From: an archaeon
GTDB taxonomy: Archaea; EX4484-52; WAPT01
Reading direction: 5' to 3'
DNA: 64,000 nt
Assembly: GCA_029258795.1 (NCBI GenBank)
Contig: JAPDKB010000009.1
Span: 1 to 64,000, forward strand
The first letter of the stretch is position 1. Each line of letters begins with the position of its first letter. The position numbers and the translations under genes were made by a program. This document shows, in pieces, positions 29,949-60,228 of the stretch. Below the pieces are notes generated by a model. That model was not told the DNA's origin. It saw nothing but the letters and a program-made list of their open reading frames with translations, and did no database searches.

Positions 29949-30065
29949 GGTGGGGGCCGGGATTTTCGGGATGTGTGTTGATTTTGGTGAGGAATTTTAC
30001 ACTTTCGAACCCGGGTCAGAGGCTCCACAGGCCTCCATTCTAGACCAGGCTAAACTACCCCCACC
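29949..30065 (-). tRNA. tRNA-His(GTG) with encoded G-1 and 41-nt intron at 59/60 (29963-30003)
   Basis: CT-GTG-GA loop; TTCG AA|A...CGAA AA|T BHB. Confidence 0.9.
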
Positions 30066-30107
30066 ACAGAAACATAGTTTAAATTGGGAGGCATTTTTAA
30101 AAGTTTT

Positions 30108-31172
30108 TTAGGATTTTCTGATGACGAACTCGCAGAACTCATCACCCATGGCAATGCATTTCGTTTCTTCAGTGGAACATTCCTCACCGAAAAATAGATT
30201 GCCCCAACCCATCATGTAACCTCTAACGGCATCACAAACGGGCTTTGAAGTTTTCACACCCTTTTCAATATAAGTTTCAGCAAAGCCAGAATTGAAGAGA
30301 CGTACTATTATTTCATTCTTATCCATGGTTATAATTTTTGCGATGCCGAAACCCCAGATTCTGGAATAATATTGATCAAGGAATTTCTGCCACATTTTTC
30401 GCTTAGTTGAAAAAGTTGTGAACTCTTTCAAAATGAAGATATATAGTTGGAGGAGTTTGGATACTTTTTTGTACCATTCGGATGCCGATAATGAAATGAT
30501 TCCTGTGATGGAATCACCCATGATTTTCTTTCCTTCCTCCCTTATTGTGAAGTAAAAGCTTGACGGAACTATCAGCTCGGGCCAGCCCTTAAGCATATAA
30601 AATCCTTTATTGGTGTCCAGCTTCACCCCTCCGTAAGGCACCAAATTTCCTGATTGTTTTGGATGCGGTTTCTCGTCAAAATCCCAATTGGATGGGCTAT
30701 CCTCAATCTCAATTGAGAATCTGCATTTATCATCACCACGCGTAACGCATGAAATTTCCACACATCTGCTTTTCCGCCTAGTAGAGCGCTCAGCCAAACC
30801 CTCCAGCACACCTGCGATGTAATGACAGAATGGTGTTTTACGCTTTCCGAATTTTTTAACGAACCCTGTGGAGAAAGGTGTCTCGCGCGCCTCTACTATT
30901 ATCCTGTTCTTATTTTCCTTCTTTAAAGTATATTTTCCCAGCCCAAGCCATGTTAGGGATTCCACACTACTTTCCAACGAGCCGTTTTCAACAGGAACTA
31001 TGAGCGAGGCATCTTTACCTGCTTTGTGGAAGAGAAATCCAGCGGAGGCACCAACCAACCTTTCCATTTCTCTCTTCATGCTCTGAAAAATGTACGCATG
31101 CCTCAGCAGCACTCTGAATCCATTTACATATATCGCGCCCTTTTCCGGGTTGACTAGAATGTCCACGCTCAT
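30108..31172 (-). CDS. tandem V4R domain protein
   Basis: two V4R motifs (PFCHYIAG..EISCVTRGDDKCRF; PVCDAVRG..ETKCIAMGDEFCEF). Confidence 0.88.
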   Translation of the reverse strand: MSVDILVNPEKGAIYVNGFRVLLRHAYIFQSMKREMERLVGASAGFLFHKAGKDASLIVPVENGSLESSVESLTWLGLGKYTLKKENKNRIIVEARETPFSTGFVKKFGKRKTPFCHYIAGVLEGLAERSTRRKSRCVEISCVTRGDDKCRFSIEIEDSPSNWDFDEKPHPKQSGNLVPYGGVKLDTNKGFYMLKGWPELIVPSSFYFTIREEGKKIMGDSITGIISLSASEWYKKVSKLLQLYIFILKEFTTFSTKRKMWQKFLDQYYSRIWGFGIAKIITMDKNEIIVRLFNSGFAETYIEKGVKTSKPVCDAVRGYMMGWGNLFFGEECSTEETKCIAMGDEFCEFVIRKS

Positions 31173-31264
31173 GGTTACCTTATCTAGGTTAAAGCCATAT
31201 ATAAAAATTTTCGTTTTTTGTCGAATAAAAACGGGTAGGTGGAACAAAACTATTTTTAGAATGA

Positions 31265-31400
31265 TGGTGCGGGGGGTGGGACTTTCAGCTGCGAAGCCTC
31301 CAGCAATTATTCAGCTTTCTCCGCAGCATTCGAACCCACGAAGGCACTGAGCCACGGGACCCTGAATCCCGCGCCTTTGGCCAGGCTCGGCAACCCCCGC
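31265..31400 (-). tRNA. tRNA-Leu(CAG) with 47-nt intron at 59/60 (31282-31328)
   Basis: long variable arm, TT-CAG-GG loop, encoded CCA; BHB TTCG:TGAA. Confidence 0.92.
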
Positions 31401-31467
31401 ACTTCAAGCAAAGAACATGAATTAATTGCGCGCAAAAGTTAAAAATGATAGCACAAAGCTCCTTGAT

Positions 31468-31956
31468 ATGGGTGAGAGAAACGATAGAGAGCTCTTGCTA
31501 ATTTCCGCCTGTCTTTTTGGTCTGGATACCAATTACAAAGGAGAGAACAAAAGGCTTGAGAAGCTAGAAGAACTGCTGAAAGATTATATTTTGATTCCTG
31601 TTTGTCCAGAGCAGCTTGGCGGGCTGGAAACTCCAAGAGTTAGCGCGGAAATAGAAACCGGTAAAATCGGAAATGATGTGCTTGAAGGTAAAGCAAGGGT
31701 GATGAGAGAAGATGGTAAGGATGTTACGGAAAACTTCGTGAGAGGGGCTCAGCAAACTTTGACCATCTGTAAGATTCTTGGGATAAAAAAGGCATTGCTA
31801 AAAGAAAGGAGCCCATCCTGCGGTGTGAATGTAATCTATGATGGAACATTCAGCAGGAAGCTTAAGAAAGGAGAGGGTGTCACCACAGCGTTGCTCAGGC
31901 AACACAGCGTAGAGGTTTTCAGCGAGGAAGAGCTAGATAAACTCTTACGGTGTTGA
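31468..31956 (+). CDS. DUF523 / 2-thiouracil desulfurase family Fe-S protein
   Basis: ISACL, PVCPEQLGGLETPR, LKERSPSCG, GEGVTTALL. Confidence 0.9.
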   Translation: MGERNDRELLLISACLFGLDTNYKGENKRLEKLEELLKDYILIPVCPEQLGGLETPRVSAEIETGKIGNDVLEGKARVMREDGKDVTENFVRGAQQTLTICKILGIKKALLKERSPSCGVNVIYDGTFSRKLKKGEGVTTALLRQHSVEVFSEEELDKLLRC

Positions 31957-33387
31957 AGCAGGATTCGATATTTTCCTCCATCTTACACCGCGCGGCGTGT
32001 CGAAAACAAGCACACCTCTCTTTCTCAGCTCATCTCTTATCCTATCTGCTTCCTCAAACCTCCTTTCCTTTCTCAGCTTTTCCCTTTCTTCAATCATCTT
32101 CATTTCTTCCACGTCCAGCCCTTCACTCCTCTCAAAATCCTCAAAAATGCCGAGCACGCTTGCAAGCTTCAGGAACTGGTCAAGCATGTGCTCCATAGCT
32201 CTTCTACTTTTTCTTTCTTCAGAATTAACGTACTTGTTGATAAAGCTGGCGAATTCAACCAGCACTCTTGTTGCTCTTGAGGCATCAAAATCATCATCCA
32301 TAGCTTCCTCAAACTCCTTAACAAATCTGTCAACTTCCCTTATTGCATCTTCATCAACCCATCCATCATCTTCTGTTGCGTTAATTTCAGCATCGAGCAT
32401 TTCCAAAGCGTTCTCAAGTTTTCTGTAAAGCTTCTCAGAGTCCTTTATTGCCTTTTCATCGAAATCCACAGGGTCTCTGTAATGCACGCTTGCCAAGAAG
32501 AATCTCAGCACACGAGCATCATATTTCTGTAGGAGCTCCCTCATCGTCACTATGTTTCCCAAGCTCTTGCTCATTTTCTCTCCTTTTATTGTGACGAACT
32601 CGTTGTGCATCCAGTAACGCACAAAGGTCTTGCCCGTTGCTGCCTCGCTCTGAGCTATCTCATTTTCGTGATGCGGGAAGATGAGGTCCTTTCCCCCGCC
32701 ATGAATGTCCAGCGTCTCTCCTAGATACTTCATGCTCATGGCTGAACATTCTATATGCCATCCGGGCCTTCCCTTCCCCCAGGGCGAATCAAACACACTG
32801 CCAACTTTATAATCTTCATCCTTAGCGGCCTTCCACAAAGCAAAGTCCCTCACATCTCTTTTGCGCGAGTCTGGCTCTATTCTGTGGCGCTTCAGCTCTT
32901 CAAGATTCTGTTTGCTCAGCTTGCCATAGTCCTTGAAGGAAGGCACATGGAAATACACGGTGCCATCATCAAGCACGTAAGCGTGACCTCTCTCAATTAT
33001 CTTTTCAATCAACTCAACGATCTCCTTTATGTGCTCCGTGACCTTCGGATAGTGATGCGCTTTCTTTATGTTCAGGGGCTCCACTATATCCTCAAAGAAC
33101 GCCTTAATGAAGAATTCCGAAACTTCCTTGAAGCTTTTCCCCTCTTTCAGAGCACGATTTATTATTTTATCATCCACATCAGTGAAGTTCTGCACAAAAA
33201 CAACTTCGTATCCTCTGTATTCCAGCCATCTCCTTATAACATCGAATGCAACACAACTTCTAGCATGCCCTATGTGACTGTAGTCGTAAGGAGTTATACC
33301 ACACACATACATCCTTACCTTTCCTCCCTCAAGCGGAACGAATTCTTCCTTCTTTCTCGTCATGGTGTTATATATCTTAATGGGCAT
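31945..33387 (-). CDS. cysS: cysteinyl-tRNA synthetase
   Basis: MYVCGITPYD..HIGH, GRPGWHIECSAM, DLIFPHHENE, KMSKS. Confidence 0.97.
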   Translation of the reverse strand: MPIKIYNTMTRKKEEFVPLEGGKVRMYVCGITPYDYSHIGHARSCVAFDVIRRWLEYRGYEVVFVQNFTDVDDKIINRALKEGKSFKEVSEFFIKAFFEDIVEPLNIKKAHHYPKVTEHIKEIVELIEKIIERGHAYVLDDGTVYFHVPSFKDYGKLSKQNLEELKRHRIEPDSRKRDVRDFALWKAAKDEDYKVGSVFDSPWGKGRPGWHIECSAMSMKYLGETLDIHGGGKDLIFPHHENEIAQSEAATGKTFVRYWMHNEFVTIKGEKMSKSLGNIVTMRELLQKYDARVLRFFLASVHYRDPVDFDEKAIKDSEKLYRKLENALEMLDAEINATEDDGWVDEDAIREVDRFVKEFEEAMDDDFDASRATRVLVEFASFINKYVNSEERKSRRAMEHMLDQFLKLASVLGIFEDFERSEGLDVEEMKMIEEREKLRKERRFEEADRIRDELRKRGVLVFDTPRGVRWRKISNPASTP

Positions 33388-33441
33388 AAAAGCTGATTTT
33401 GAAAGGAAATTATAAAAGAATTGTTCTTCTCCACCTTCTCC

Positions 33442-33951
33442 ATGGAGTTCTTCTCCCACATCTATGAAAGCTGGCGCGAAATGCAATATGAAAAGTACGA
33501 AGCAATTTTTCGCGAGCTTGAGAGTGCTAACGCGAGTGTGCGGGGAAAAACCGTTGTGGATGTTGGATCTGCACAGGGCTTCCTAATCGATTTTATGAGG
33601 GGGCAGGGAATACAAACCAAGCTGTATGTGGGAGTGGATGTTGATAAAAGCGCGATACGAAAGCTGAATTCCCAGCTCAAAATTTTGGCGAGCGCGGAAG
33701 CATTGCCGTTTAAAGAAGAGGTGTTTGATGTGATGTTCTGTATAGATGTGATTCACCTTTTGAAGGATAAGCTTGATCTTTCTCCGGTGAAGGAGGATGG
33801 GGTGGTTGTGGTTGCTCTACCATCCAGACATGAGAGCAAGTTGCAGAGGTTTGTGGAAGATATGAGCGCTGAAGGAATGGAAATGTTGAGCTCTTTTTCA
33901 ATAGAAGGAAAAGAAAGGGAGTGTGTGGTGGTGCTGAGGAAGAAGCACTAG
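33442..33951 (+). CDS. class I SAM-dependent methyltransferase
   Basis: VVDVGSAQG motif I, GVDVD, AEALPF..EVFD. Confidence 0.8.
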   Translation: MEFFSHIYESWREMQYEKYEAIFRELESANASVRGKTVVDVGSAQGFLIDFMRGQGIQTKLYVGVDVDKSAIRKLNSQLKILASAEALPFKEEVFDVMFCIDVIHLLKDKLDLSPVKEDGVVVVALPSRHESKLQRFVEDMSAEGMEMLSSFSIEGKERECVVVLRKKH

Positions 33952-34259
33952 CATTGTTGCTGGAGTTTTGTTGCGATTTCTCTTAGCTCTGCAGGGCTGT
34001 AGCTCTCATTCCTGTCCAGAAGCCTGGAGTAAACCTCCTCCAGCCTGCTGACCACGCTGTGCTCGCCCCTGTAGAACGAGTTCCAGAGCTTACCCGCTTC
34101 CCTGTAGTTCTCCAGTGTGCGCTTCAGCTTTTCCACATCCACACCAACCCTCTCCAGAACATGTCCATCGTTTTCAAGCAGGGTTTCGATGCTGTTTAAC
34201 AAGTCCGCGTACGAGAAAAAGCTATACTTCTTGGCTCTTTCCGAGGATAAATCCATCAC
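33948..34259 (-). CDS. hypothetical protein
   Basis: 103-aa helical ORF with purine-rich RBS region. Confidence 0.55.
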   Translation of the reverse strand: MMDLSSERAKKYSFFSYADLLNSIETLLENDGHVLERVGVDVEKLKRTLENYREAGKLWNSFYRGEHSVVSRLEEVYSRLLDRNESYSPAELREIATKLQQQC

Positions 34260-34331
34260 CCTTCATCCCACTCACCCCCTCCAGATTTTCTCGACAGGTT
34301 GAGATGTTAGGAAAAAGAAGTTTATAAAGTT

Positions 34332-34757
34332 TTATCCACGCGCAAAAGGCAGATTCTTCATGATGCATACGCATCTGTACAGCTGCTCCAGCAGGACTAT
34401 TCTTGCAAGTTGATGTGAGAATGTTAATCTAGAGAGTGAAAGTGTGGAAGAGGCAAGCTCCTTTATACTTTCATCCACGCCGTGTTTACCACCTATGATG
34501 AATGTTATATCACTGTTCAGCTTTTCTTTCAAAAACTCGCAGAAGTCGTGAGAGTTGAACTCCTCACCCCTCTCATCCAGCAAAACAACATAACCTTTAA
34601 GGTATTTCTTTATTTTTTCCGCTTCCTCCTCCACACTCCTGCCTTCCTTGAGCTCAACGATTTCAATCTTGAGGTGGGGCTGGAGAAGCGCCAGATAATG
34701 TCCCTGAGCATCCCGAAAATGGGATTTTAACTTACCCACACAAACAATTCTGGTCAT
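34332..34757 (-). CDS. rlmH: 23S rRNA (pseudouridine1915-N3)-methyltransferase RlmH
   Basis: VCVGKLK, LDERGEEFNS, FIIGGKHG, SLSRLTFSHQLARIVLLEQLYR. Confidence 0.9.
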   Translation of the reverse strand: MTRIVCVGKLKSHFRDAQGHYLALLQPHLKIEIVELKEGRSVEEEAEKIKKYLKGYVVLLDERGEEFNSHDFCEFLKEKLNSDITFIIGGKHGVDESIKELASSTLSLSRLTFSHQLARIVLLEQLYRCVCIMKNLPFARG

Positions 34758-34780
34758 TCAGAAACACCACAAAAACTGTT

Positions 34781-34899
34781 TGGTGCCCCCGCCGGGATTT
34801 TCAGCCGCTTATTCTCTCTCGAAGTAGAGCATGACGGCATTTGAACCCGGGTCATCGGCTCGAGAGGCCGATATCCTTGCCTGGCTAGACTACGGGGGC
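34781..34899 (-). tRNA. tRNA-Glu(CTC) with 42-nt intron at 59/60 (34798-34839)
   Basis: CT-CTC-GA loop, CCA; strict BHB TTCA:TGAA with GCCGT:GCGGC. Confidence 0.93.
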
Positions 34900-34946
34900 A
34901 CAATAACTTGTATTAAAAAAGCAGGAGAATTTTAAATGTTTCGTCT

Positions 34947-35174
34947 TCACTTCTTACCTCTGCTCTCCGCCGGAAGCAAGAATCTGCGGTACAACGCTAT
35001 CTCATCAATGAAGTCCTTATGGGTTATCATCAAACTTCTGCAGCAATACCTTGTTATTCCGAGTTCGTCCAGCACTTTAGAAGGATGCTTTCCCTTCTTG
35101 ACTTCCTGCTGAAACTTTTCCCATTTGTCAGCAAGCACCTTCCCACAGGAGATGCATCTTATGGGTATGATCAC
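34947..35174 (-). CDS. rpoN: RNA polymerase subunit Rpo10 (N)
   Basis: IIPIRCISCGK...RYCCR. Confidence 0.96.
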   Translation of the reverse strand: MIIPIRCISCGKVLADKWEKFQQEVKKGKHPSKVLDELGITRYCCRSLMITHKDFIDEIALYRRFLLPAESRGKK

Positions 35175-35227
35175 GATATCTCACCTCACAGATTAAAGGT
35201 GTAAATAGGGGGATGGAAATATCCCCA

Positions 35228-35635
35228 TCATCTGTAGCTGGTCTGTTTGATTCTTCTCGGACCCTTCTTTGACCTTGATGGTTTGTGGGGCTCTGTTCTT
35301 CTCGGATCGTAAACAAGCATACCCCTGTCATATTCGAGGAACTTCTTCTTCAAGCTCTCGCTTTTGGTCAGTCTGACCAAAGCCCTCGCTATCGCCATCC
35401 TTATCGCTTCAGCTTGAGCATTAATCCCACCGCCTTTCACCACAATATCCATGTCCACCTTCTTTATCTTATCCTCTCCAGCTATTATTATGGGCTCCAT
35501 GATCTTCAGCTTCAGCATTTCGGGCTTGTAAATATCAAGCAACATCTTGTTTATTCTTATGGTTCCACTCCCCTCCCTAACATACGCTCTTGCTACAGCC
35601 GTCTTTCTCTTACCTGTTGTAACAAAAGGTTTCAT
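35228..35635 (-). CDS. rps9: ribosomal protein uS9
   Basis: GKRKTAVARA, GGG..QAEAIR, C-terminal QTSYR. Confidence 0.96.
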   Translation of the reverse strand: MKPFVTTGKRKTAVARAYVREGSGTIRINKMLLDIYKPEMLKLKIMEPIIIAGEDKIKKVDMDIVVKGGGINAQAEAIRMAIARALVRLTKSESLKKKFLEYDRGMLVYDPRRTEPHKPSRSKKGPRRIKQTSYR

Positions 35636-35639
35636 AGTA

Positions 35640-36056
35640 TCACCACCTTGCACCCAACCATCTTGCAATGTCCTCAATTCTCACGAACTTCCTATCTCTG
35701 AGCTTGTCTGCGGTCCATTCGAGCTTGATCTTCTCAGCATCCTTATACTCGTCAGGTACGCCGATAAAGACCTTCACCCTTTTATATGCCTCTTTGCCGC
35801 GTGTTGTTTTGTATGGAAGCATCCCGCGTATTGCTCTTCTCACAATCCTATCGGGCATTCTGGGGAAAAACGGACCCTTGTATCTGTCTCCCACATCCCT
35901 TCTGGTTTTGTACTTATCTTTTATGTTCTCTTCATTCCCGCTTATTATGGCTTTTTCAGCATTAACTATAACGATTGTCTCTCCCTCCAGAGCTTTCTTC
36001 GCCACAAATGATGCCATCCTTCCCAAAATGGTGTCTGTAGCGTCTATAACCATCAT
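35640..36056 (-). CDS. rpl13: ribosomal protein uL13
   Basis: IDA..ILGRMAS, GPFFPRMPD..RGMLP. Confidence 0.96.
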   Translation of the reverse strand: MMVIDATDTILGRMASFVAKKALEGETIVIVNAEKAIISGNEENIKDKYKTRRDVGDRYKGPFFPRMPDRIVRRAIRGMLPYKTTRGKEAYKRVKVFIGVPDEYKDAEKIKLEWTADKLRDRKFVRIEDIARWLGARW

Positions 36057-36063
36057 TTTTCAT

Positions 36064-36432
36064 TCACCCTTTCATCAACCTTACTCCGCTTCCATTAGGG
36101 TTCTGTTCCAACAGGTCTCTTATAGGGAGCCACTTTCCTCCCGCTTCCTCAACTTTTTTTATGGCCGAAGGTGAAGCATCAAGTGATGCAACCACAAGTT
36201 TTTTGGTGAGATTCCCACCACCAAGCAGCTTGCCTGCCACAACAACAATCTCTCCTTCATTGCAGTACCTTTCCAGCTTTCCAACGTTTACGGGCTTCTT
36301 AATCCTTCTTGGCCTCTCAAGCTCATCTGCAAGCGCTCTCCACACCGGAGCTTTATTCTTCACGCTTGCTTTCCTCAATACCCTTATCAGCTCCCTCAAC
36401 ACAGGGTTGGTAGGGCCGGTCGGTTTCATCAT
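36064..36432 (-). CDS. rpl18e: ribosomal protein eL18
   Basis: TGPTNP, VNVGKL, VVAGKLLGGG. Confidence 0.95.
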   Translation of the reverse strand: MMKPTGPTNPVLRELIRVLRKASVKNKAPVWRALADELERPRRIKKPVNVGKLERYCNEGEIVVVAGKLLGGGNLTKKLVVASLDASPSAIKKVEEAGGKWLPIRDLLEQNPNGSGVRLMKG

Positions 36433-36450
36433 GCCACCTCCATAGCTGTA

Positions 36451-36570
36451 TGGTGCAGGGGGTGGGATTTCCACGCTTCCGTGCAATTATCGGAAGCGGT
36501 TCGAACCCACGACGGGCCTGCGCCCACCGGATCTTAAGTCCGGCGCCTTTGACCTCTCGGCCACCCCTGC
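36451..36570 (-). tRNA. tRNA-Leu(TAA) with 32-nt intron at 59/60 (36468-36499)
   Basis: CT-TAA-GA loop, variable arm, CCA; intron stem CGCTTCCG:CGGAAGCG. Confidence 0.92.
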
Positions 36571-36611
36571 ACAGCCCAGCAATCTTCACTTTTTGTGTAT
36601 GATTTTTAAAT

Positions 36612-37421: not shown

Positions 37422-37426
37422 TCACA

Positions 37427-37840: not shown

Positions 37841-37860
37841 CCACCATCACCACTTTTTCA

Positions 37861-38412: not shown

Positions 38413-38426
38413 ATATCAACACCACA

Positions 38427-41522: not shown

Positions 41523-41643
41523 TGGCGCCGCGGGCAGGATTTTCAGATGCGGGAAAATCAAAGTCCCACAACCTTCGAACCTGCGCGCCCTTACGGGCAC
41601 CGGCTCTCAAGGCCGGCGCACTACCAGGCTATGCGACCGCGGC
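41523..41643 (-). tRNA. tRNA-Ser(TGA) with 34-nt intron at 59/60 (41540-41573)
   Basis: CT-TGA-GA loop, variable arm, G73, CCA; TTCG:TGAA BHB. Confidence 0.92.
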
Positions 41644-46492: not shown

Positions 46493-46503
46493 GACCTACA
46501 CCT

Positions 46504-46938
46504 TCATATCATTCTTTTTATGAGGTCGTTGATCTTCTCTCCCCTGTAACCGAGTGCTCCTCCAACCGTGAAGTGCTTCTTTATACCTTTTCTCTCATAA
46601 CCCTTTCTCGGAGGAGCAAGCCGAAACACGGGCTTCAATCCGGCTTTTTTAAGCCCCACTTCCTTGATTTTCTTCACATACTCATCGACTTTCTCTGCTG
46701 GTATTTTTCCACCACCTTCAAGCTCCCCTCTTTTTTCCACAAGAAGCTTGAGGACTTCATCACTAACCTCTCCCCACGTAACATAATCCTTGACCTTGAA
46801 AATCATACCCTTGTATGAGTCATTTTCAGGCACAACCGTGCAGTGGTGTGGCTTGTTCAGATTCAGAAGTTTAAGTGTTCTTTCAACTTCCTCCCTTACA
46901 CCAACAGTACCTCTTACTCTCACCACCGCGTACATCAC
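46504..46938 (-). CDS. rpl30: ribosomal protein uL30
   Basis: AVVRVRG, VTWGE, FRLAPPRKG, GYRGEKIN. Confidence 0.95.
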   Translation of the reverse strand: MMYAVVRVRGTVGVREEVERTLKLLNLNKPHHCTVVPENDSYKGMIFKVKDYVTWGEVSDEVLKLLVEKRGELEGGGKIPAEKVDEYVKKIKEVGLKKAGLKPVFRLAPPRKGYERKGIKKHFTVGGALGYRGEKINDLIKRMI

Positions 46939-48880: not shown

Positions 48881-49573
48881 TTACTTTTTGCTTTTGGTGG
48901 TTGATTTTTTGGTGGTCTTGGAAGAGCTCTTACTTTTTGCTTTTGAACTGCCTGTGGCTTTTTTGGTTTTACCTTCCACTTTTTCCTTTTTCTTAACCTC
49001 TTTCTTCCTCTCATCACCCTTCTTCTCAGCCGTCTTCTTTTCCGCTTTTTTGGCTTTCTCCTTTACAGCTTTCTTCTCCTCAGCTTCCTCCTCTTCCTTT
49101 GTTTCCTCAACCTTCTTCTCTTCCTTCGCCTTTTCCTCCTTCTCTTTCTTTTTCTTCTCCTCTCTTGCCTTCAATTCAAGATATGAACGCCTCTTTATCC
49201 TTGGATTGAGCACTTTGATGCCAAGTTCTTCAGCTTTCTTCAGGATTTCAAGCTTCTTCTTTGTGCCCACACATGAAGCAACTCTAACAGCTTCCTCTTC
49301 CCTGTTAACCCTTTCAAGATCGGTAGGGTTGTAAACAATCACCTCCCTATAACCAGAAGGATGAAGGTGTCTCGCTTCTTTAGGACCGCCATATCCGGAG
49401 CAAGGCATTTTTGGCTTTCCGAATATTCTTTTCCTCATTTTGTTGTGAATTCCCTTCGGTTTTCTGTAGCCACTCCTGCTTATCTTCTTTATTCTATCTC
49501 CTAAATACCTCCTGAATTTGGGCTTCCTCTTCTTTACTTCCTCTCTGAGCTTTACAAGCTCCTTCATTGCCAT
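48881..49573 (-). CDS. rpl32e: ribosomal protein eL32 with long charged C-terminal tail
   Basis: RKPKG..NKMR, GYG..RHLHPSG, KVLNP followed by ~95-aa K/E tail. Confidence 0.95.
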   Translation of the reverse strand: MAMKELVKLREEVKKRKPKFRRYLGDRIKKISRSGYRKPKGIHNKMRKRIFGKPKMPCSGYGGPKEARHLHPSGYREVIVYNPTDLERVNREEEAVRVASCVGTKKKLEILKKAEELGIKVLNPRIKRRSYLELKAREEKKKKEKEEKAKEEKKVEETKEEEEAEEKKAVKEKAKKAEKKTAEKKGDERKKEVKKKEKVEGKTKKATGSSKAKSKSSSKTTKKSTTKSKK

Positions 49574-51353: not shown

Positions 51354-51378
51354 CCACACTCACCATCAAAAAGCATGA

Positions 51379-52101
51379 CTAATGTACGGTTATTTCGGGC
51401 GCGTCATCGCCCACCACAAAAACATAATCAGCAAGCGTAGTAACTTTCTTATCACCTACCTTCAGAGTTATTCTGTTGGGGTCAAAACCCTTTATTATCT
51501 CAATCTGCTCCACCTTACCGAGTTCGCCAGCCAACTTACCTCTGTAAATCTGTGCAACCTTTCCAACTTCCATCTTTATGTGCTTGAGGATCTTCTGATC
51601 AGGCAAGCTTATGAGCAGGGAGTCCATGGTTTTGTAAACATCCTCCTTCGGATTGCAGGGATCCTTAACCTTGATAAGTATGTTCCTGCCATCGTGAAGG
51701 TTGAGCTGGATGTGACCGCCCTTAACCACGGTCTTGTTCATTATCCTGCAGAGCTTCATGTTCGCTTCCTTTTCCGGGATTTCGACCAGCACAAACCTCT
51801 CCTTCTTTGGAACGACTCTGTAGTGCTTGCCAGCATCAGGTAGGGATATGACATCCATCACTCCGACTCCAAAGCGGTCATCCTTGCGCACAACACCATC
51901 CACAACAACCTTTCCGGCAGCCACAATTTTCTTGGCTTCTCTTGCGTTTCTTGCGTAACCGAGCATGTCTCGCAACACTATTCTTAAAGGTATTGCTCTA
52001 TCATGCGGATGTCCGCCCCCCTTCACAACAGGAGCAAATTTGCTAACCTTGACTGGTATGCTGTAAACCTTTGGTGCAGCATATCTTTTTAGATGTGCCA
52101 T
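51379..52101 (-). CDS. rps4e: ribosomal protein eS4
   Basis: HLKRYAAP, VGVMDV, QLNLHDGRN. Confidence 0.96.
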   Translation of the reverse strand: MAHLKRYAAPKVYSIPVKVSKFAPVVKGGGHPHDRAIPLRIVLRDMLGYARNAREAKKIVAAGKVVVDGVVRKDDRFGVGVMDVISLPDAGKHYRVVPKKERFVLVEIPEKEANMKLCRIMNKTVVKGGHIQLNLHDGRNILIKVKDPCNPKEDVYKTMDSLLISLPDQKILKHIKMEVGKVAQIYRGKLAGELGKVEQIEIIKGFDPNRITLKVGDKKVTTLADYVFVVGDDAPEITVH

Positions 52102-52520
52102 CAGCTGCTCACCTCTTCTTTAGCAGATTCACCACTTTTTCTTGCAATCTTTTTAATTCTTTTCTCATCTTCCGTGTTCAACTCCACGATCTGAAGGTTG
52201 GATGGGTGGAGGGGTACAAGCACCTCACTACCATCCGTCTTCTTCCTCTTGACATTTTCAACATAAACGCGTCCTTTCTTTAGATTAACTCTTGTAACCT
52301 TACCCTCAACACCCTTAAATGAACCCCTCAACACCCGTACGACATCTCCTGTTCTTACAACAACATTTCTCCTTCCGTATTTCTTTCGTAGCTCTTTTGA
52401 GAGGTTGACTGAGAGGAATTTCCTCCTTATGTGGAGAGGAGCATTAGCTATGTATTTCCTCTGTTTTCTCGGGCTTTTGCTGCGCACCCAGTTCCTTGAA
52501 AACTTGACCTTCATAACCAT
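52101..52520 (-). CDS. rpl24: ribosomal protein uL24
   Basis: [24 protein letters not shown]. Confidence 0.96.
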
Positions 52521-52528
52521 TCACCCCT

Positions 52529-52927: not shown

Positions 52928-52939
52928 ATGCGGCACCCG

Positions 52940-53356: not shown

Positions 53357-53654
53357 TCAATCCACCCCATATTTTTCGTGGAAACCTTTTCTTTATCCTA
53401 TCTTCGGGCCTGCCCTGAATCACCTTACCATCCACTTCCACCACGCTCCCATCCGGAAGCGTGAAGTGGAACACACAGTTCTTCTTTTCAACCCTGATCT
53501 CCCTGCCATCTCGCTTTCTTATCACAAGCGTGTTTTTCGTTTCATTTATGACTTGCCCTTCAACCCCCACAAGCGTGGGGTCACTGCTTTTTACTATTTT
53601 AACATCGAGGCCTATGAGCTCATGCCTGACGAGGTTCTCTGGCTTTATTGGCAT
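53349..53654 (-). CDS. rnp1: RNase P protein Rpp29
   Basis: HELIGL, G.VINETKN, GRPEDR. Confidence 0.93.
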   Translation of the reverse strand: MPIKPENLVRHELIGLDVKIVKSSDPTLVGVEGQVINETKNTLVIRKRDGREIRVEKKNCVFHFTLPDGSVVEVDGKVIQGRPEDRIKKRFPRKIWGGLNG

Positions 53655-53658
53655 CGGC

Positions 53659-53964
53659 TCACTCCACTATCGAGCTTTCCGGAAAGCCCTCCTCGATGAG
53701 CATCTTTTTGACCTTCAGGCGATGATCTCCCTGCAGTTCTATCTTACCGTCCTTGTAGGTACCACCACATGCAAGTTTTTTCTTGAACTTCTTGAGCAGT
53801 GATTTGATGTCTATGCTCTTTTCATCAAGCCCTTCTATAATCGTTATGGTTTTGCCGAATTTCCTCTTTTCCACATAAATTTTAATTTTCTGCTTTTCCC
53901 TCGCTATGGTTTCGCAGATGCACAGGTCTTTTGGAAGACCACAAACATTACATATCTCCGTCAT
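53659..53964 (-). CDS. sui1: translation initiation factor aIF1/SUI1
   Basis: [23 protein letters not shown]. Confidence 0.95.
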
Positions 53965-54179
53965 TTCTTACTAAGCACCTCTTTTTCCCTTTTTATGGTC
54001 AATATCCTTGCTATAGTTCTTTTTATCTCTCTGACCTTACCTGGATTGTCCGGCACGCCTCCCACCTTTGCCTTTGCTCTTTCTTTCATCAGCTCCATTC
54101 TCAAATCTGCGAGTTTCTTCTCAAGTTCTTCGTCACTCATGTCTCTTATCTGTGTTGCCTTGAGTATTGCCATGATCAT
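53961..54179 (-). CDS. rpl29: ribosomal protein uL29
   Basis: [24 protein letters not shown]. Confidence 0.95.
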
Positions 54180-55066
54180 TCACCACTTTTCTTTTCCTCA
54201 TTTTTCTTCACAGAGCCCGAAGCATCAGCATCGGATTTCTTTCCCTTATCCATACCTTCCTTTTTCTTGACCTCTTTCTTCCTCTCATCACCCTTCTTCT
54301 CAGCCGTCTTCTTTTCCGCTTTTTTTGCCTTCTCCTTTACAGCGTTCTTCTCATCACTCCCTTCCTTTGTTTCCTCAACCTTTTCCTCCTCCTTCTCAGC
54401 TTCCTCCTCTTCCTTATCCTCTTCTTTCTTTACCGCGAACTTCTTAATGATGTCCTCACTTATTTCTACTTCTCCCCGCGCAACTCTCTTTTCAAGTTCC
54501 ATCTCAGGAGGCATAAAAGGCATTATTTCGACCTTTACTCCGATAACTCCCGGCTTGAGCACGGCTTGTTCCTTCGCAACATCCACGTATTCCTGAGCTG
54601 GATGTCCGCATTTCATGACATAACCAGCAACATACTTTTCTGTTCTGTGTCTCTCTCCCGTGAGCTTCCCGCTTACATCTATTTCAACACCAACCGCTCC
54701 AGCTTCCATGATCCTGTTGAGATACATGGTGACTACGCGCTTATAGTGCAAGCCCCTTTCAAGAGCGAATTTTATGCGTTTGGCAACCACCTTTGCATCA
54801 AGATAAGGATTATCAACACCTTTAACCTCTATCTGCGGGTTCTCTATGCCAAACTCCTCCTTCATTTTTTCCTGAATCTTGGCTATTCTTTCTCCACCCC
54901 TACCTATGACAAGTGCGGGTCTTCCAGCATATATAACTATTCTGGTTGCCAGAGGAGTCCTCTTAATCTCACACCGGCTGTACTCCGCTCTATCCAGCTC
55001 TTTATCCAAAAATTCAGCTATCTTCATGTTCACTATTCCTTCCTGAACGAACTTTCTCTCTATCAT
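54176..55066 (-). CDS. rps3: ribosomal protein uS3 with long charged C-terminal tail
   Basis: P.LVIGRGG KH motif, SGKL, GVIGVKV; ~85-aa K/E tail. Confidence 0.96.
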
Positions 55067-55073
55067 CCTTCCT

Positions 55074-55505
55074 TCACCTTTGCTCCAAAACTACTGAGAT
55101 GTGCACGCTCTTTCTTTTCTGCCCTCTGAGGGGTGAGCGCCTTGGCCTGTAAAATGTGGGGGCTTTCATCACCAAAAATGATTTGATGAAGAGCTTTGAA
55201 ACATCAAGTCCCTGATTCTCAGCGTTTTTCACAGCACTGTTGATGAGATCAAGTATTTCCTTTGCAGCGTTAACTGGATACCTTCCAGCCCCGATACCTG
55301 GCTTGTGAGCCACATCTCTGTTGAACCTGCCGAATGGCACAGCTCTCTTCATCTCAATGACATCCTGAAGGAAGCGCCTTGCTTTCTCAACGTTCATTCC
55401 CTTTATAGCTTTTCCTATTTCCACAGAGGCTTTCCATGAAATCCTTACATACCTTTTGCATGCTCTTGCCATTCTTGAAGGATCGTAATCCTGCACGTTA
55501 TACAT
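55074..55505 (-). CDS. rpl22: ribosomal protein uL22
   Basis: IKGM, AVPF.RF, GRYPV..A, NAE..GL. Confidence 0.95.
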   Translation of the reverse strand: MYNVQDYDPSRMARACKRYVRISWKASVEIGKAIKGMNVEKARRFLQDVIEMKRAVPFGRFNRDVAHKPGIGAGRYPVNAAKEILDLINSAVKNAENQGLDVSKLFIKSFLVMKAPTFYRPRRSPLRGQKRKSVHISVVLEQR

Positions 55506-55517
55506 CTCGGCTCACCT

Positions 55518-55907
55518 TCACTTCCTACCTACGTGCTTTGTTGATTTGGATGCACCTATACCTGGACCGCTGTGCTGCACGGGCTTTCTGGTTAGAGCAA
55601 ATTCTCCCAACCTGTGCCCTATCATTTCAGCGGTTATGGTGACGGGCACAAACTCTTTACCATTGTGGACGCCTATAGTGCGCCCCACCATTTCGGGCAG
55701 GATGATCATGTCTCTGCAGTGAGTTTTTATGAACTTGTCCTTGGAGGTTTTCCTTATTTTTTGAAGCAGCTTCTTCTCAGCTTCAGTGAGCCCTCTCTTC
55801 AAGTGTCTCCTAGCCCTTGCTGTCAGTAATTCAGCTAACTCTTCCAAGCTCATCTTCTGCAATTCTTCAAGCGTGTAACCTCTGAACCTGAACTCCTTTC
55901 GAGCCAT
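55518..55907 (-). CDS. rps19: ribosomal protein uS19
   Basis: [21 protein letters not shown]. Confidence 0.96.
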
Positions 55908-55914
55908 TTACCAT

Positions 55915-56628
55915 TCACCTCTTCCTTCTACCGGTTCTTCTCGCGGCTATGCTACCCACCTTTCTGCCGGGCGGTGCACGCCTGCTAACAGTTTTGGGCA
56001 CACCAAAGCTCTTACCACCGAACTTGTGATCACATGCGTTCATGGCTTTAGCCCTCGTTCTCGGGTACTTCTTACCTCTCGCATGCATCGCGTGCCACTT
56101 ATTGCCAGCTTTCACAAATGGCTTTTTCGGCCTCTCTCCACCTGCAACTATACCTATTGTGGCTCTGCAGTTCGGATTGAGCCCCTTGGTTTTTCTTGAT
56201 GGGAATTGCACTGTGACTTTATCAACATCTCTTGAAAGGACTATGGCATAACCACCGCTTGCCCTCACGAGCTTTCCACCATCGCCAGGAACAACCTCTA
56301 TGTTAAACACGGGTGTACCTTCAGGTATGTCTTTAAGGGGCAGCACATTCCCTATCTTTAGCTGTGCTCCCTCTCCAACTTCCACAACGTCTCCCGTCTT
56401 CACACCTTCACTTGCAATGAAATACCATTTCTCACTCGTGCCATCGAATTTAACGAGTGCAAGAGGAGCTGTTCTGCCTGGATCATCCACTATATCTATT
56501 ATCTTACCTTTAAGGTTGCCCTTCTGAAGGGGAGGATATTTAACATCAGCAACGTAGTTGAAGCTTGGCACTAAGTAGGTTTTGGATACGCCCCTTCCAC
56601 GGCGCTGAGCGATTATTCTTGTACCCAT
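55915..56628 (-). CDS. rpl2: ribosomal protein uL2
   Basis: QRRGRG, DPGRTAP, PGDGG, AMNACDH. Confidence 0.96.
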   Translation of the reverse strand: MGTRIIAQRRGRGVSKTYLVPSFNYVADVKYPPLQKGNLKGKIIDIVDDPGRTAPLALVKFDGTSEKWYFIASEGVKTGDVVEVGEGAQLKIGNVLPLKDIPEGTPVFNIEVVPGDGGKLVRASGGYAIVLSRDVDKVTVQFPSRKTKGLNPNCRATIGIVAGGERPKKPFVKAGNKWHAMHARGKKYPRTRAKAMNACDHKFGGKSFGVPKTVSRRAPPGRKVGSIAARRTGRRKR

Positions 56629-56643
56629 ACATCACCACCATCA

Positions 56644-56922
56644 TCAGATTATGCCTAATTTAGCAGCTATGTCTGTAGCATTGTAATCCTTGCTTACGGC
56701 TATGTATGCCTTCTTCCTGCCCTTCGCATCTATCAACGTTCTAACCTTTCTGACCTTAACCTTAAACATGTTTTCAAAAGCTTTCTTTATCTTTTCCTTG
56801 TTAGCTCTTCTATCCACTATAAATGTTATGGTGTTCTCCCTCTCTATGAGAGAGATTGCCTTTTCTGTAAGCACGGGATAAAGCAACACTTCAAATGGGT
56901 CGTTAACCTTAACTTCAGCCAT
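56644..56922 (-). CDS. rpl23: ribosomal protein uL23
   Basis: TEKA, NTITFIV, KKAYI. Confidence 0.95.
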   Translation of the reverse strand: MAEVKVNDPFEVLLYPVLTEKAISLIERENTITFIVDRRANKEKIKKAFENMFKVKVRKVRTLIDAKGRKKAYIAVSKDYNATDIAAKLGII

Positions 56923-56923
56923 T

Positions 56924-57751
56924 TCAGCTCACCGCGAAAAGCTTTTTCTCCTCCAGCTCTTTTATGGCATTCTCACTCCAGATGCTCAACCTTCCTGCAT
57001 GACCACCCGGAGCCAGCATCTCCACGTTGAGATCCTTCACAAGGCAGACATCAACACCGGGTATGTTTCTTGCTGCCTTGAATATTCCATCATCCTTACT
57101 CACCACTATGAGGGGGCCTTTCCTCTTCTTGTATCTCCTTCCTCTCATCTTACCCTTTCCGGCCCTGTATCTTTTCTCGCGCACCCTTTCCAGCTCTTCC
57201 TCCAGACCCAGCTTTTTGAGCAGGTTTTCAAGCTCTTTTGTCTTCTTCACACTTTCAAGCTCGCTAACAACGACTATTGGTAGCTTTTCAACTTTATCCG
57301 CTCTGTGTCCTCTCTTAAGCACGAGGGTTTTCCTTGCAAGAGCGGCTATGGCAGCAAGTATAGCTTTCCTCCTCTCCTTCTTGTTTATCTTCTGCTCCCA
57401 CTTCTTCTCAGCTTTTGGTGGATGAGCTTTCCTACCCTTGACAGCATGTGGCACAAACCTCACAACTCCGGTCATGTGGCCTGAACCAACTCTTATGCGT
57501 GGCAGCCTCGCTATACCTCTGTTTATCCAGGCCCCGTAAGCGCCTCTTCTTCCTCTGTAATCAGCACTAGTTCTCTTTCCTGCCAGAGGATCAGCTCCAT
57601 AGGGCTGCCTCCTGTGGCTCATGATGGCAAGGAAAGCTCTGATTATGAGATCATGCCTTACCTCCTCGCTGAAGTGCTCGGGGAGAGTGATCTCGCCCTT
57701 CTTGCTTCCGTCCAGACCATAAACAGGAACTTTCAACTCAGCCATAGCCAT
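56924..57751 (-). CDS. rpl4: ribosomal protein uL4
   Basis: RQPYG, AHPPK, RAGKGKMRGRRY, LAPGG. Confidence 0.96.
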   Translation of the reverse strand: MAMAELKVPVYGLDGSKKGEITLPEHFSEEVRHDLIIRAFLAIMSHRRQPYGADPLAGKRTSADYRGRRGAYGAWINRGIARLPRIRVGSGHMTGVVRFVPHAVKGRKAHPPKAEKKWEQKINKKERRKAILAAIAALARKTLVLKRGHRADKVEKLPIVVVSELESVKKTKELENLLKKLGLEEELERVREKRYRAGKGKMRGRRYKKRKGPLIVVSKDDGIFKAARNIPGVDVCLVKDLNVEMLAPGGHAGRLSIWSENAIKELEEKKLFAVS

Positions 57752-57752
57752 T

Positions 57753-58760
57753 TCACCATATCAGCTGCTTGATCTCGGGAGGTTCTGTTGGGGGCTCATG
57801 AGACCTTATAGCATATCTTATCCTCACCAATCTCTTTGATGGCCCAGGAACAGAACCATGGATAATTATATAATCTGATTTCACAACACCATAGTGTTTC
57901 CAGCCACCGGGTCTTGCAACACGGGAAGCGTCATTTCCAACCTCCATAATCCACTTGTTGTACTCGGTCCTTGTGTGATACCCCATCTGACCCATCTGAG
58001 GAACGGTCCACATAGTTCTTGCAGGGTGCCATGGACCGAGAGTTCCAGCTTTTCTCCTTACCTTCCTTGCCTTGTGGTGCAGAAGCTTCACACCAAATCT
58101 CTTTACGGAGCCCTGGAATCCCTTACCCTTGGTAACGGCCGTGACATCAACAAAAACACCGGGAGAAAAGACATCGGAAATGCGAAGTTCCTTGCCGAGA
58201 AGGGAGGAAACCTCATCGAGAACAGCAGAAAGGGAATCAGAAGCAGAATCGGAAGAAGCGTCGTTTACCCAGTTTGTGGGGAAATAGTGAATCTCAAAGA
58301 TCTCAGGTGTCTTCTTTCCTATTCCTGCAAGCTTCGGCTGCGTTGCAACAATCAGCTTAACCTTATCAAAACCATTTTTGACCTTATCAAGCACAGCATT
58401 TTTATCCTTGTTCGGCTTTATTCCGGTTATTTTTCGTGCAACCTCCTTGTCTATCTTCTCACTCCACAGTTCTGTTATTGCTTCGTATCCATATGGTGTC
58501 TTTTTATAGAAGCGAGCAGCAAGAACCTTGAGAGGTGGTGTTTCTATCAGGGTTGCGGGCTCCACAATTTCCTTGTTCTTGAACATACCCTCCCTTTTTT
58601 CTATGTAATCAACCTGAAGCATCCCTACTTTGTATCCGGCAAATTCCACCACATTCTTGCCATCAACAGCAGGAACATGCCTGACTCTAGCATAAATGCG
58701 CTTAGCCCTAACTCTGGGGGAAAACTGCAATGATCCTCTCCTCGGGTGGTAATAGCTCAT
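57753..58760 (-). CDS. rpl3: ribosomal protein uL3
   Basis: PRRGSL, GYKVGM, TKGKGFQG, GQMGYHTRTE. Confidence 0.96.
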   Translation of the reverse strand: MSYYHPRRGSLQFSPRVRAKRIYARVRHVPAVDGKNVVEFAGYKVGMLQVDYIEKREGMFKNKEIVEPATLIETPPLKVLAARFYKKTPYGYEAITELWSEKIDKEVARKITGIKPNKDKNAVLDKVKNGFDKVKLIVATQPKLAGIGKKTPEIFEIHYFPTNWVNDASSDSASDSLSAVLDEVSSLLGKELRISDVFSPGVFVDVTAVTKGKGFQGSVKRFGVKLLHHKARKVRRKAGTLGPWHPARTMWTVPQMGQMGYHTRTEYNKWIMEVGNDASRVARPGGWKHYGVVKSDYIIIHGSVPGPSKRLVRIRYAIRSHEPPTEPPEIKQLIW

Positions 58761-59003
58761 TTCCACACACCACGCAGCATATTCATGGCTCGTAGCTTGT
58801 GTTCACAAGATTTGTAATCATGAAAATGATAACATTTAAATATTTTGGTGATATCTGGCTGGAGGCAACAACCTATACATACCCTCATACAAAAAAAGCG
58901 ACAGCTTTTAATCAAACACCAAAATTTTTAAACGTTGTTATTCTCGCCTTCACGACTTTAAAGAAAAAATATTTTTAAAGTAGCGTCGGCAATAAAATAC
59001 CCA

Positions 59004-59603
59004 ATGACTGAAAAACTCAGCGAAAAGGTGAAGAAATTCCTTGTAGTGAAAAAGAAAGTAAAACTGGAGGAAATATCCAGCTATAAAACTCAGATTCTCA
59101 TAATAGGGTCAACGATTTCCTTCCTTCTCGGAGGTTTTGACCTCTTACTTCCTTTTCTTCTTGCATGGTTTTCATACTTTATATTTGAGAGTTACGCATG
59201 GGAATTTGGTTTGGATAATCTTGGGGTGGAGCTCATAACACTGGCATGTGTGCTCGTGGGGATGAAATTCGAACCAGCATTTTCCTTCATTTACGCGTAT
59301 GTTACAATAGGCACAATGTCATCCATAGCAAAGTTTGTTGATCCCGACTCCGATGAGATATCAAATCCATTCGGAAGCTATGCTTTTGGGTATGGTGTTG
59401 CTGCGCTTTCAGCATCTTATCTAGCAGGCAACCTACCTTTCCCAGAACTTCTGGTTGCTTCTGCCATACTTGCCAATCTCGCGAGATTTGCTTTTGACCT
59501 CTTGGTTTACAGAAGTATTGATGATATTATATGGAGGGTGGGTAATATTTTCTTTAACTGCATTATTGCAATGTTCTTTTCATTTCTCAGCATGGTTATC
59601 TAG
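59004..59603 (+). CDS. multi-pass membrane protein
   Basis: several hydrophobic helices; no recognised family. Confidence 0.6.
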   Translation: MTEKLSEKVKKFLVVKKKVKLEEISSYKTQILIIGSTISFLLGGFDLLLPFLLAWFSYFIFESYAWEFGLDNLGVELITLACVLVGMKFEPAFSFIYAYVTIGTMSSIAKFVDPDSDEISNPFGSYAFGYGVAALSASYLAGNLPFPELLVASAILANLARFAFDLLVYRSIDDIIWRVGNIFFNCIIAMFFSFLSMVI

Positions 59604-60080
59604 GGTTTTTCGCAATCTTGTGTAGATGGGCGTGTATTTTCGTTTCTCGTAAAATCTGATCGAGTTGTGATTTCCAACGTAAGCGTCAAGCTCAACAATT
59701 TTGATGTCCATCTCATGCGCTTTCTTCTCGGCTGCTGAAAGCAATGCACTCCCCACCCCTTTGGAACGCCACTCTTCAACCACATAGATATTATCTACAT
59801 ACAACACCTTTTCCCGCCTATAGATTCCAGCATAAGTTATGACTCTCCCGCTCACCACACCGATAATCTTCCCATCCTCACTCTCAGCCACGAGCAACAA
59901 TTTCGTACCCTTTTTCATACCTCTAATACAAGAGTTAACGTAGTTCTTCAGGCTACCCTCACAATCATCTCCACTTTTGAGAAGGGGATCGTAATACCTC
60001 TCCTCTTCCTGCATCAGCTTGAAAAGTCGCAGTATATGGTCCGAGTCATCATCTTCGGCTTCCCTTATTTCCGCATGCAT
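59580..60080 (-). CDS. GNAT family acetyltransferase
   Basis: IYVVEEWRSKGVGSALL, N..SIRFYEK. Confidence 0.9.
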   Translation of the reverse strand: MHAEIREAEDDDSDHILRLFKLMQEEERYYDPLLKSGDDCEGSLKNYVNSCIRGMKKGTKLLLVAESEDGKIIGVVSGRVITYAGIYRREKVLYVDNIYVVEEWRSKGVGSALLSAAEKKAHEMDIKIVELDAYVGNHNSIRFYEKRKYTPIYTRLRKTLDNHAEK

Positions 60081-60110
60081 GAAGGGATCACACCATCAAA
60101 CAAAAATCTA

Positions 60111-60228
60111 TGGGCCGGCCAGGATTTTCAGCTGCGGAGTTCCAGCATATTCAGCTTTGCTCCGCAGCAATCGAACCTGGGACCTCTCCCGCGTCAGGGG
60201 AGCGTCATAACCCCTAGACCACCGGCCC
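60111..60228 (-). tRNA. tRNA-Val(GAC) with 45-nt intron at 59/60 (60125-60169)
   Basis: CT-GAC-GC loop; BHB TTCG:TGAA with GCTGCGGAG:CTCCGCAGC. Confidence 0.92.

Follow-up and report, generated by a model that had tools for sequence, protein, structure and literature searches.

Introns at a single non-canonical position, between nucleotides 59 and 60 of the T-loop, dominate the transfer RNA (tRNA) genes of a DPANN archaeon whose genome (G000) we analysed starting from a window of 64 kilobases (kb), the first 64 kb of contig C5 (JAPDKB010000009.1). Six tRNA genes in the window carry an intron at this site, and across the genome 30 of the 46 curated tRNA genes do. The site is dominant, not exclusive. 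Judged by their geometry, the inserts are genuine archaeal tRNA introns with bulge-helix-bulge (BHB) junctions, of the kind that the proteins EndA and RtcB would be expected to splice. We consider it probable that the introns are protein-spliced, and that this one site owes its dominance to a small intron family that spread by copying between the tRNA genes of this lineage, its copies surviving thanks to an exon context that is universal among tRNAs.

Six tRNA genes of the window are interrupted in the T-loop

The source genome comprises 1,168,407 bases on 23 contigs and was scored 96.3% complete and 0% contaminated. In the raw window sequence ARAGORN found three tRNAs, and two tRNAs exceeded the Rfam gathering score. 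When left unspliced, one of the six tRNAs with a T-loop intron was caught by ARAGORN, namely tRNA-Leu(UAA), misfolded as an intron-less gene of 85 nucleotides (nt), and none of the six was above the gathering score in the Rfam scan of the window. The genome was scanned for BHB registers, each candidate was spliced in silico, and the product was given to ARAGORN. Strict BHB criteria reduced 67,984 candidates to 31 hits, and relaxed criteria reduced 1,602,578 candidates to 327 hits at 44 loci. A T-loop-specific filter yielded 30 candidates genome-wide, 28 of which were resolved by ARAGORN; tRNA-Arg(UCG) was resolved once a second intron, in the D-loop, was also removed, and one candidate was dropped as a false match in coding DNA. 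tRNA-Asp entered the curated set from the relaxed scan, after a 1-nt register correction.

All six window genes lie on the minus strand and share one layout: T-stem, TTCR and A-N, then the intron, inserted exactly between positions 59 and 60 and closing with YGRA and A-R, then T and the second strand of the T-stem. tRNA-His(GUG) (29949-30065), which has G-1 and does not encode its 3' CCA, contains a 41-nt intron (29963-30003) with a UUCG/CGAA central helix; its BHB motif is relaxed because four extra unpaired bases lie between the inner and central helices. The 47-nt intron (31282-31328) of tRNA-Leu(CAG) (31265-31400) belongs to the intron family described below as family A, and has the same sequence as the intron of tRNA-Leu(CAA) on contig C3. 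tRNA-Glu(CUC) (34781-34899) is interrupted by a 42-nt intron (34798-34839), and tRNA-Leu(UAA) (36451-36570) by a 32-nt intron (36468-36499). The 34-nt intron (41540-41573) of tRNA-Ser(UGA) (41523-41643) has one mismatch in its inner helix. tRNA-Val(GAC) (60111-60228), again with the 3' CCA not encoded, holds a 45-nt family A intron (60125-60169). The 3' CCA is encoded in the other four genes (Leu-CAG, Glu-CUC, Leu-UAA and Ser-UGA). After in-silico excision ARAGORN accepted all six products as tRNAs, four of them (Leu-CAG, Glu-CUC, Leu-UAA and Val-GAC) from the strict scan and two from the relaxed scan (His, accepted as tRNA-His, and Ser-UGA).

We re-read these sequences and recomputed their coordinates, and the initial annotation of the window was borne out for all six genes. 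Each carries a BHB intron at 59/60 with the described junction (TTCR...YGRA-A-R before T60), the junction geometry agrees with the T-loop supplying half of a central helix of 4 base pairs (bp), removal of 32-47 nt restores a normal tRNA, and none of the six has a canonical 37/38 intron. Intron-less copies of the same anticodons had been raised there as a possible counter-indication, and none exists elsewhere in genome G000 for any of the six. Minimum free energy folding drew the T-stem and the inner intron helix for all six, and the central 4-bp helix for His alone; we suspect that nearest-neighbour energies fall short for weak, A/U-rich 4-bp helices flanked by bulges, and do not count the undrawn helix in the other five against the motif.

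Splice-motif geometry is common to all 59/60 introns

All 30 curated 59/60 introns in the genome fit a 3-4-3 register, in which two 3-nt bulges on opposite strands have a 4-bp helix between them. This central helix has four of four pairs in 26 introns and three of four in the other 4, and an inner helix of at least 3 bp directly adjoins it in 24 of the 30. The junction bases are A58 and T60 in every intron, with A59 in 27; the intron's 3' strand of the helix reads TGAA in 15, and the last two intron bases are AA in 24. Intron lengths range from 24 to 52 nt.

In the structure that we propose for these pre-tRNAs, the outer helix would be the T-stem and the inner helix the intron hairpin. T54-T55-C56-R57 would pair with the 3'-terminal YGRR of the intron to form the central helix, with A58-N59 and the first intron base making up one bulge and the last two intron bases and U60 the other. 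EndA would cut in both 3-nt bulges, and RtcB would then seal 59 to 60, which would leave a normal 7-nt T-loop. Canonical 37/38 introns have the same geometry, with the anticodon arm where the T-arm stands here, such that positions 54-57 are equivalent to 32-35, 58-59 to 36-37, and 60 to 38. The two sites differ in that the exon half of the central helix contains the variable anticodon bases in 37/38 introns, whereas it is invariant at 59/60.

The combined pattern GGTTCRANN{18,46}NGRRAVTCC gave 30 matches in G000, against 3 for a reversed-pattern control. These 30 matches represent 29 distinct introns, because the Val intron matches twice; the Asp intron escapes the pattern. The bare GGTTCRA motif was not enriched (22 found, 17.4 expected).

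Position 59/60 dominates the tRNA introns of the genome

Genome G000 has about one intron per tRNA gene, and about 30 of the 45 introns (roughly two thirds) lie at 59/60. Twenty-three of the 30 genes concerned have no other intron. Five combine it with a 37/38 intron (Trp, Ala-GGC, Ile-UAU, Met and Leu-CAA), and two with an intron at another site, in the D-loop of Arg-UCG and probably in the variable region of Leu-GAG. The initial annotation had suggested near-systematic use of one site on the basis of six genes. The dominance of that site stands, at a scale beyond the six; its use is not exclusive. For comparison, canonical introns make up almost 70% of the tRNA introns in 217 archaeal genomes, and the mean in Thermoproteales is 0.84 introns per tRNA gene, according to the accessible part of a published survey (PMC8450103).

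Standard gene finders fared poorly on this genome. ARAGORN recovered 16 of the 46 tRNAs, some of them misfolded, and Rfam tRNA hits of at least 50 bits numbered 12 in G000 against 25 and 24 in two congeneric genomes (tRNAs on contig C11, discussed below, are left out of both G000 counts). Since standard finders overlook most tRNAs in such genomes, inferences on completeness and codon usage in this lineage will be wrong without BHB-aware tools. tRNA-Lys(UUU) and tRNA-Thr(CGU) were not found in the genome-wide tRNA scans.

A small intron family is shared between unrelated tRNA genes

We compared the 59/60 introns pairwise, excluding their constrained ends and scoring similarity as z against shuffles. 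Of 435 pairs, 51 had z > 4. Family A, with the consensus GCUGCGGAGCAA ... CUCCGCAGC-UGAA-AA, comprises the introns of Pro-CGG, one Pro-UGG copy, Gly-UCC, Gly-CCC, Cys, Glu-UUC, Ala-CGC, Val-GAC, Leu-CAG and Leu-CAA, with the Met intron as a marginal member, giving a total of 10 or 11 introns in eight amino-acid families. There are four different T-stems among the family A genes, which means that they have the intron in common and not the arm. The family keeps a conserved 9-bp hairpin. A second small family comprises the introns of Ala-GGC, Thr-GGU and perhaps Asp.

We compared nine paralogous pairs, and in eight of them identity is 81-100%: the Leu-CAG and Leu-CAA introns match at 47/47 nt, those of Val-GAC and Ala-CGC (the latter on contig C3) at 43/45 nt, and six further pairs are 81-87% identical. 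The ninth pair, formed by two Pro-UGG copies, is 58% identical. Orthologous introns in G000 and its congeners are 40-74% identical (8 pairs). Taken together, the comparisons show what appears to be copying of a small intron family between tRNA genes. The initial annotation had proposed that the conserved TTCRA was targeted repeatedly. Its repeated use is upheld by homologous introns in unrelated tRNAs, by the absence of some of them from close relatives and by 59/60 introns in different tRNAs in other lineages of the phylum; the apparent targeting of 59/60 may instead be survivorship.

The two Pro-UGG copies lie 5.9 kb apart (C3:46230-46370 and 52090-52220) and have near-identical exons, identical 3' flanks and differing 59/60 introns of 48 and 42 nt. 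It seems that, once the gene had been duplicated, an intron was replaced or the introns turned over fast.

Whole-intron BLAST on the genome returned 42 hits inside 59/60 introns, self-matches included, and 1 marginal hit outside them; apart from that marginal match, the search found no free-standing intron copies in G000. No RVT_1 reverse transcriptase was found in the 96%-complete genome. As no reverse transcriptase was seen, the copying step was probably DNA-level, perhaps short-patch recombination or gene conversion between T-arms. The survival of copies at 59/60 would follow from the exon half of the motif, the T-stem and TTCRA, which does not vary from one tRNA to another. A family copy arriving there would be splice-competent at once; most other positions differ between tRNAs. 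Archaeal tRNA genes have external promoters, so an interruption of the T-loop costs nothing in transcription.

The introns might also have functions of their own, as modification guides, as regulatory circles, or as a checkpoint that delays T-loop modification or folding. The conserved 9-bp hairpin of family A is compatible with such a role, as are C/D-box-like motifs that we noted by eye in the canonical introns of Met, Leu-CAA and Trp (the box consensus is RUGAUGA for C and CUGA for D). However, we saw no C box by eye in the 59/60 introns, and a permissive Rfam scan of positions 29600-64000 found no small RNA family inside the window introns, and we rejected C/D-box guides in 59/60 introns on these two grounds. 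Moreover, orthologous introns diverge fast, lengths vary from 24 to 52 nt, and the introns are dispensable in the congeners. We regard an intron function of this kind as very unlikely.

Occupancy of 59/60 is patchy among related genomes

Comparison with related genomes revealed patchy occupancy of 59/60, with some introns lacking even in congeners. In the two congeners, G001 and G002, the DNA surrounding the genes is about 73-75% identical to that of G000, and despite this the exons are almost invariant. Ser-UGA is intron-less in both, with exons nearly identical to those of G000. Leu-UAG is intron-less in G001, and the Glu-CUC ortholog is intron-less in G001 and has a 48-nt intron in G002. 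Leu-CAG, Ser-CGA, Ser-GGA, Ser-GCU and Leu-UAA have a 59/60 intron in G000 and in both congeners.

The combined pattern matched 30 times in G000, 8 times in each congener and 0-11 times in each of the other 38 sampled genomes, with at least one match in 36 of the 41; counts of 3 or fewer are noise, because the reversed control gives 0-5 matches per genome. Introns at 59/60 occur in 7 of the 8 sampled families of the phylum, which as sampled is a single order. We took 36 pattern regions from seven relatives, and 26 resolved to a tRNA. In G004 the occupied genes are Gln-CUG, Gly-CCC and Arg-GCG, and in G007 they are Asp, Glu-UUC, His, Pro-UGG, Ser-GCU, Asn, Arg-UCG, Lys-CUU and Gly-CCC. Gln-CUG (occupied in G004), and Asn and Lys-CUU (occupied in G007), have no 59/60 intron in G000. 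As the sets of occupied tRNAs differ by lineage, the same site was colonised many times. Near-identical introns at several T-loops were also seen elsewhere, in 4/4 hits in G020 and 3/3 in G032. Named genomes of Nanohaloarchaea, Aenigmatarchaeota, Iainarchaeum and Methanolobus gave control-level counts, with one or two plausible cases.

This distribution bears on an alternative in which the introns are ancient and evolve in concert: all would have been present in an ancestor, relatives would have lost most of them, and family A would be the product of homogenisation by conversion. The presence of 59/60 introns in seven sampled families and the five introns common to G000 and both congeners are consistent with this, and gene conversion would likewise yield high identity between paralogs. 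However, it demands an ancestor with nearly all of its tRNAs interrupted, followed by many precise deletions in single-copy essential genes, in a genome in which we found no reverse transcriptase. Occupancy is also strongly lineage-dependent, and orthologous introns are often unalignable (40-56% identity), which suggests replacement. We therefore consider ancient introns unlikely and favour copying between tRNA genes.

Among the sequencing runs found to contain this DNA, none was an RNA run. We also compared DNA contig sets of four sequencing runs with these loci. At the Ser-UGA intron, 34 nt are skipped by DNA contigs from runs X2 and X3. We set aside a population variant as the source of this skip in favour of an intron-less relative; the short side spans only 20 nt, so the skipping contigs probably come from relatives. 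Most of the other signal in these sets was noise that came from relatives.

The interrupted genes could also be products of misassembly or decay, given that they come from a metagenome bin, and the bin does consist of 23 contigs, including one of 9 kb (C11) with a bacterial-type tRNA cluster. Yet the interrupted genes are the sole copies of 30 needed tRNAs in a genome with the high completeness score given above, their exons stay near-invariant against congeners while the flanking DNA has diverged, the same structure occurs in independent genomes, and the DNA is present in independent sequencing runs. We rejected pseudogenes and misassembly on the sole copies, the exon conservation and the recurrence in other genomes, and regard an artefact as extremely improbable.

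Contig C11 (9.3 kb) itself holds a tight intron-less Thr-Gly-Tyr-Thr cluster with high bacterial-style scores (C11:165-495), and is probably a bacterial contaminant despite the contamination score of 0%. The G+C content of contigs C10, C12 and C17 is 28-31%, against 41-45% for C1-C9.

The genome encodes a single alpha4-like EndA

A single endA gene (G000:C6:35295-35885) encodes a protein of 197 amino acids with N and C domains (PF01974, 90.6 bits; PF02778, 60 bits), and RtcB is encoded at C3:134423-135718 (582 bits). A self-search at E <= 10 revealed no EndA paralog, the one match being a chance match (E 0.096) in an 860-amino-acid open reading frame. From its sequence the enzyme appears to be alpha4-like, with no beta-subunit paralog detected; a very diverged beta subunit could remain. 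The Tyr, His and Lys columns, which we take to be the catalytic triad, are conserved with M. jannaschii 1a79. A 7-residue C-terminal insert (the VNPYKKGEKSPREH region) is a gap in 1a79, is present in the N. equitans 3iey_A alpha subunit, and is kept in 9 of the 11 aligned EndAs. Typing by alignment thus gave one alpha4-like gene with an L3-type insert. The closest named relatives of this EndA are from bins labelled 'Nanobdellati archaeon' (DPANN), followed by Nanohaloarchaea and Aenigmatarchaeota. The endA gene starts 37 bp downstream of an intron-less tRNA-Phe on the same strand (C6:35182-35885).

Kaneta et al. 2018 (PMC5829648) reported an L3 loop in DPANN alpha4 EndAs and linked it to a larger number of disrupted tRNA genes. 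G000 resembles these cases in its single gene and in a C-terminal insert that aligns to N. equitans alpha, and the accessible part of that report gives no position-specific intron pattern. We rejected the L3 loop as a sufficient cause of the T-loop introns, since the insert is also found in Nanohaloarchaea and Aenigmatarchaeota without an intron burst. Its presence in lineages at background 59/60 counts means that it is at most permissive. G000 thus pairs an alpha4-like EndA with tRNA genes whose non-canonical introns outnumber the canonical ones by about 3 to 1.

Other interruptions in tRNA and ribosomal RNA genes

A seventh intron-bearing tRNA of the window, missing from the initial annotation, is tRNA-Arg(UCU) (23285-23410, minus strand), which is part of the same intron-rich set of tRNAs and has a D-loop intron of about 44-49 nt with approximate ends and no 59/60 intron. 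ARAGORN and Rfam saw it merely as a truncated 'gene' of 68-79 nt (23285-23363). Arg-CCU (G000:C3, about 79300-79420) and Arg-UCG (C1) contain similar D-loop inserts, and a D-loop intron is likewise present in Val-CAC (C2). The D-loop inserts of the Arg tRNAs look like a second site-specific intron family.

Among the canonical 37/38 introns, those of tRNA-Met (74 nt; C2, minus strand), Leu-CAA (55 nt; C3, about 113020-113230) and Trp (59 nt; C2, about 24450-24650) contain, as read by eye, GUGAUGAG ... CUGA motifs like those of intron-embedded C/D-box guides. The minor isoleucine tRNA (C2, about 124000-124190), which has both 37/38 and 59/60 introns, apparently has the anticodon UAU rather than CAU.

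An Rfam scan placed a 16S-tRNA-Ala-23S operon and an RNase P RNA within the window. The 16S ribosomal RNA (rRNA) gene has a 46-nt insert (28910-28955, minus strand) after GGGGUGAAA, at Rfam model position about 636. The insert's junctions are compatible with a BHB motif with 3/4 pairs in the central helix, an outer GGG/CCU helix and an inner helix of about 11 bp, and it is possibly an rRNA mini-intron. The same gene has a further 16-nt extension near model position 70.

Discussion

Several points weigh against our reading that a copied, protein-spliced intron family accounts for the dominance of 59/60. Sixteen curated genes have no 59/60 intron, again leaving out the tRNAs of C11. Nine of these are intron-less, four are interrupted in the anticodon loop alone (Tyr, Lys-CUU, Thr-UGU and one of unassigned identity at C3:58968-59096), and three in the D-loop alone (Arg-UCU in the window, Arg-CCU and Val-CAC). 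Other sites are in use as well: about 9 genes have a 37/38 intron, 4 have one in the D-loop and 1 has one in the variable region. Several anticodon assignments in multi-intron genes were readings by eye rather than the output of a dedicated tool. Excision of the introns from RNA is something that we infer, with indirect support from intron-less orthologs that have the same exons. The pattern count in relatives overlooks introns that exceed 52 nt or whose junctions are spelled differently, and the comparison with congeners, being unpolarised by an outgroup, shows presence or absence rather than the direction of change. Finally, the high identity of paralogs could reflect gene conversion between pre-existing introns and not new insertion.

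Interruption at 59/60 could also have been favoured by protective selection, with introns kept as they split the tRNA 3' half that integrases of viruses and plasmids use as attB. The initial annotation had raised this idea, which had earlier been proposed in print for split tRNAs and tRNA introns in archaea (Randau and Soll 2008, as related in the accessible parts of PMC4090602 and PMC4033280). An intron at 59/60 does interrupt the T-arm, and the genome has one tyrosine recombinase gene only. However, our analysis yielded no direct support for protection, selfish copying accounts for the pattern without a protective benefit, and far fewer introns are enough for the congeners and for other relatives. 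We consider attB protection quite unlikely as the explanation. The lone tyrosine recombinase (Phage_integrase) gene lies at C7:47627-48121, between tRNA-Thr(UGU) (46502-46605) and tRNA-Gln(UUG) (about 49030-49140), and could encode XerA or the integrase of an element.

Copying between tRNA genes, which we favour, has a stronger form in which family A is a site-specific mobile element of tRNA T-loops that is active now. The intron would bring its own half of the BHB motif (…YGAA-AA), the invariant T54-R57 and the T-stem would give the other half, and the element could therefore colonise any tRNA gene. Copies that are 96-100% identical, polymorphism among congeners and the differing tRNA sets of sister lineages form the basis for this suggestion, which we put forward tentatively and give slightly less than an even chance.

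Parts of this picture have precedents. The 59/60 site, intron transposition, L3 EndAs and the idea of attB protection are already published. The initial annotation was correct that non-canonical tRNA introns are known, including in DPANN. Introns at 59/60 have been described in ARMAN-2 (Candidatus Micrarchaeum acidiphilum), with in vitro cleavage shown there for pre-tRNA-Cys (Fujishima et al. 2011, PMC3239211). As far as the accessible part of that report goes, ARMAN-2 is like G000 in its 59/60 T-loop site, BHB-type junctions, DPANN affiliation and many disrupted tRNA genes (56% in ARMAN-2), and unlike it in having a three-unit epsilon2 EndA and introns spread over several positions. The 59/60 intron tested in ARMAN-2 is also a 13-nt relaxed hBH, whereas those of G000 are 24-52 nt long and mostly complete hBHBh'.

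Introns transposed between tRNA genes are another parallel, described in Thermoproteales, where similar introns are likewise found across tRNA identities within one genome. There, similar introns occupy canonical and various non-canonical positions, in Crenarchaeota with an (alpha-beta)2 EndA; in G000, by contrast, the family is confined to one position of universal context, in a DPANN lineage with an alpha4-like EndA. Similar introns have been read as recent gain at the DNA level (Fujishima 2010, as summarised in the accessible parts of PMC4033280 and PMC4090602). In the literature searched, where the string '59/60' is unsearchable, we found no description of one non-canonical site dominating through a T-loop-specific intron family. 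What is new here is a T-loop-specific, recently expanding BHB intron family in a DPANN lineage with an alpha4-like EndA.

These findings bear on how archaeal tRNA introns are gained, a process for which transposition has been inferred in Thermoproteales. Here the problem is narrowed to a single site and a single short intron family, with events that are very recent, and because sister genomes hold intron-less and intron-bearing orthologs, the copying step is open to direct test. If family A is indeed a mobile element of T-loops, this lineage would be the first system in which the mechanism by which archaeal tRNA introns transpose could tractably be caught.

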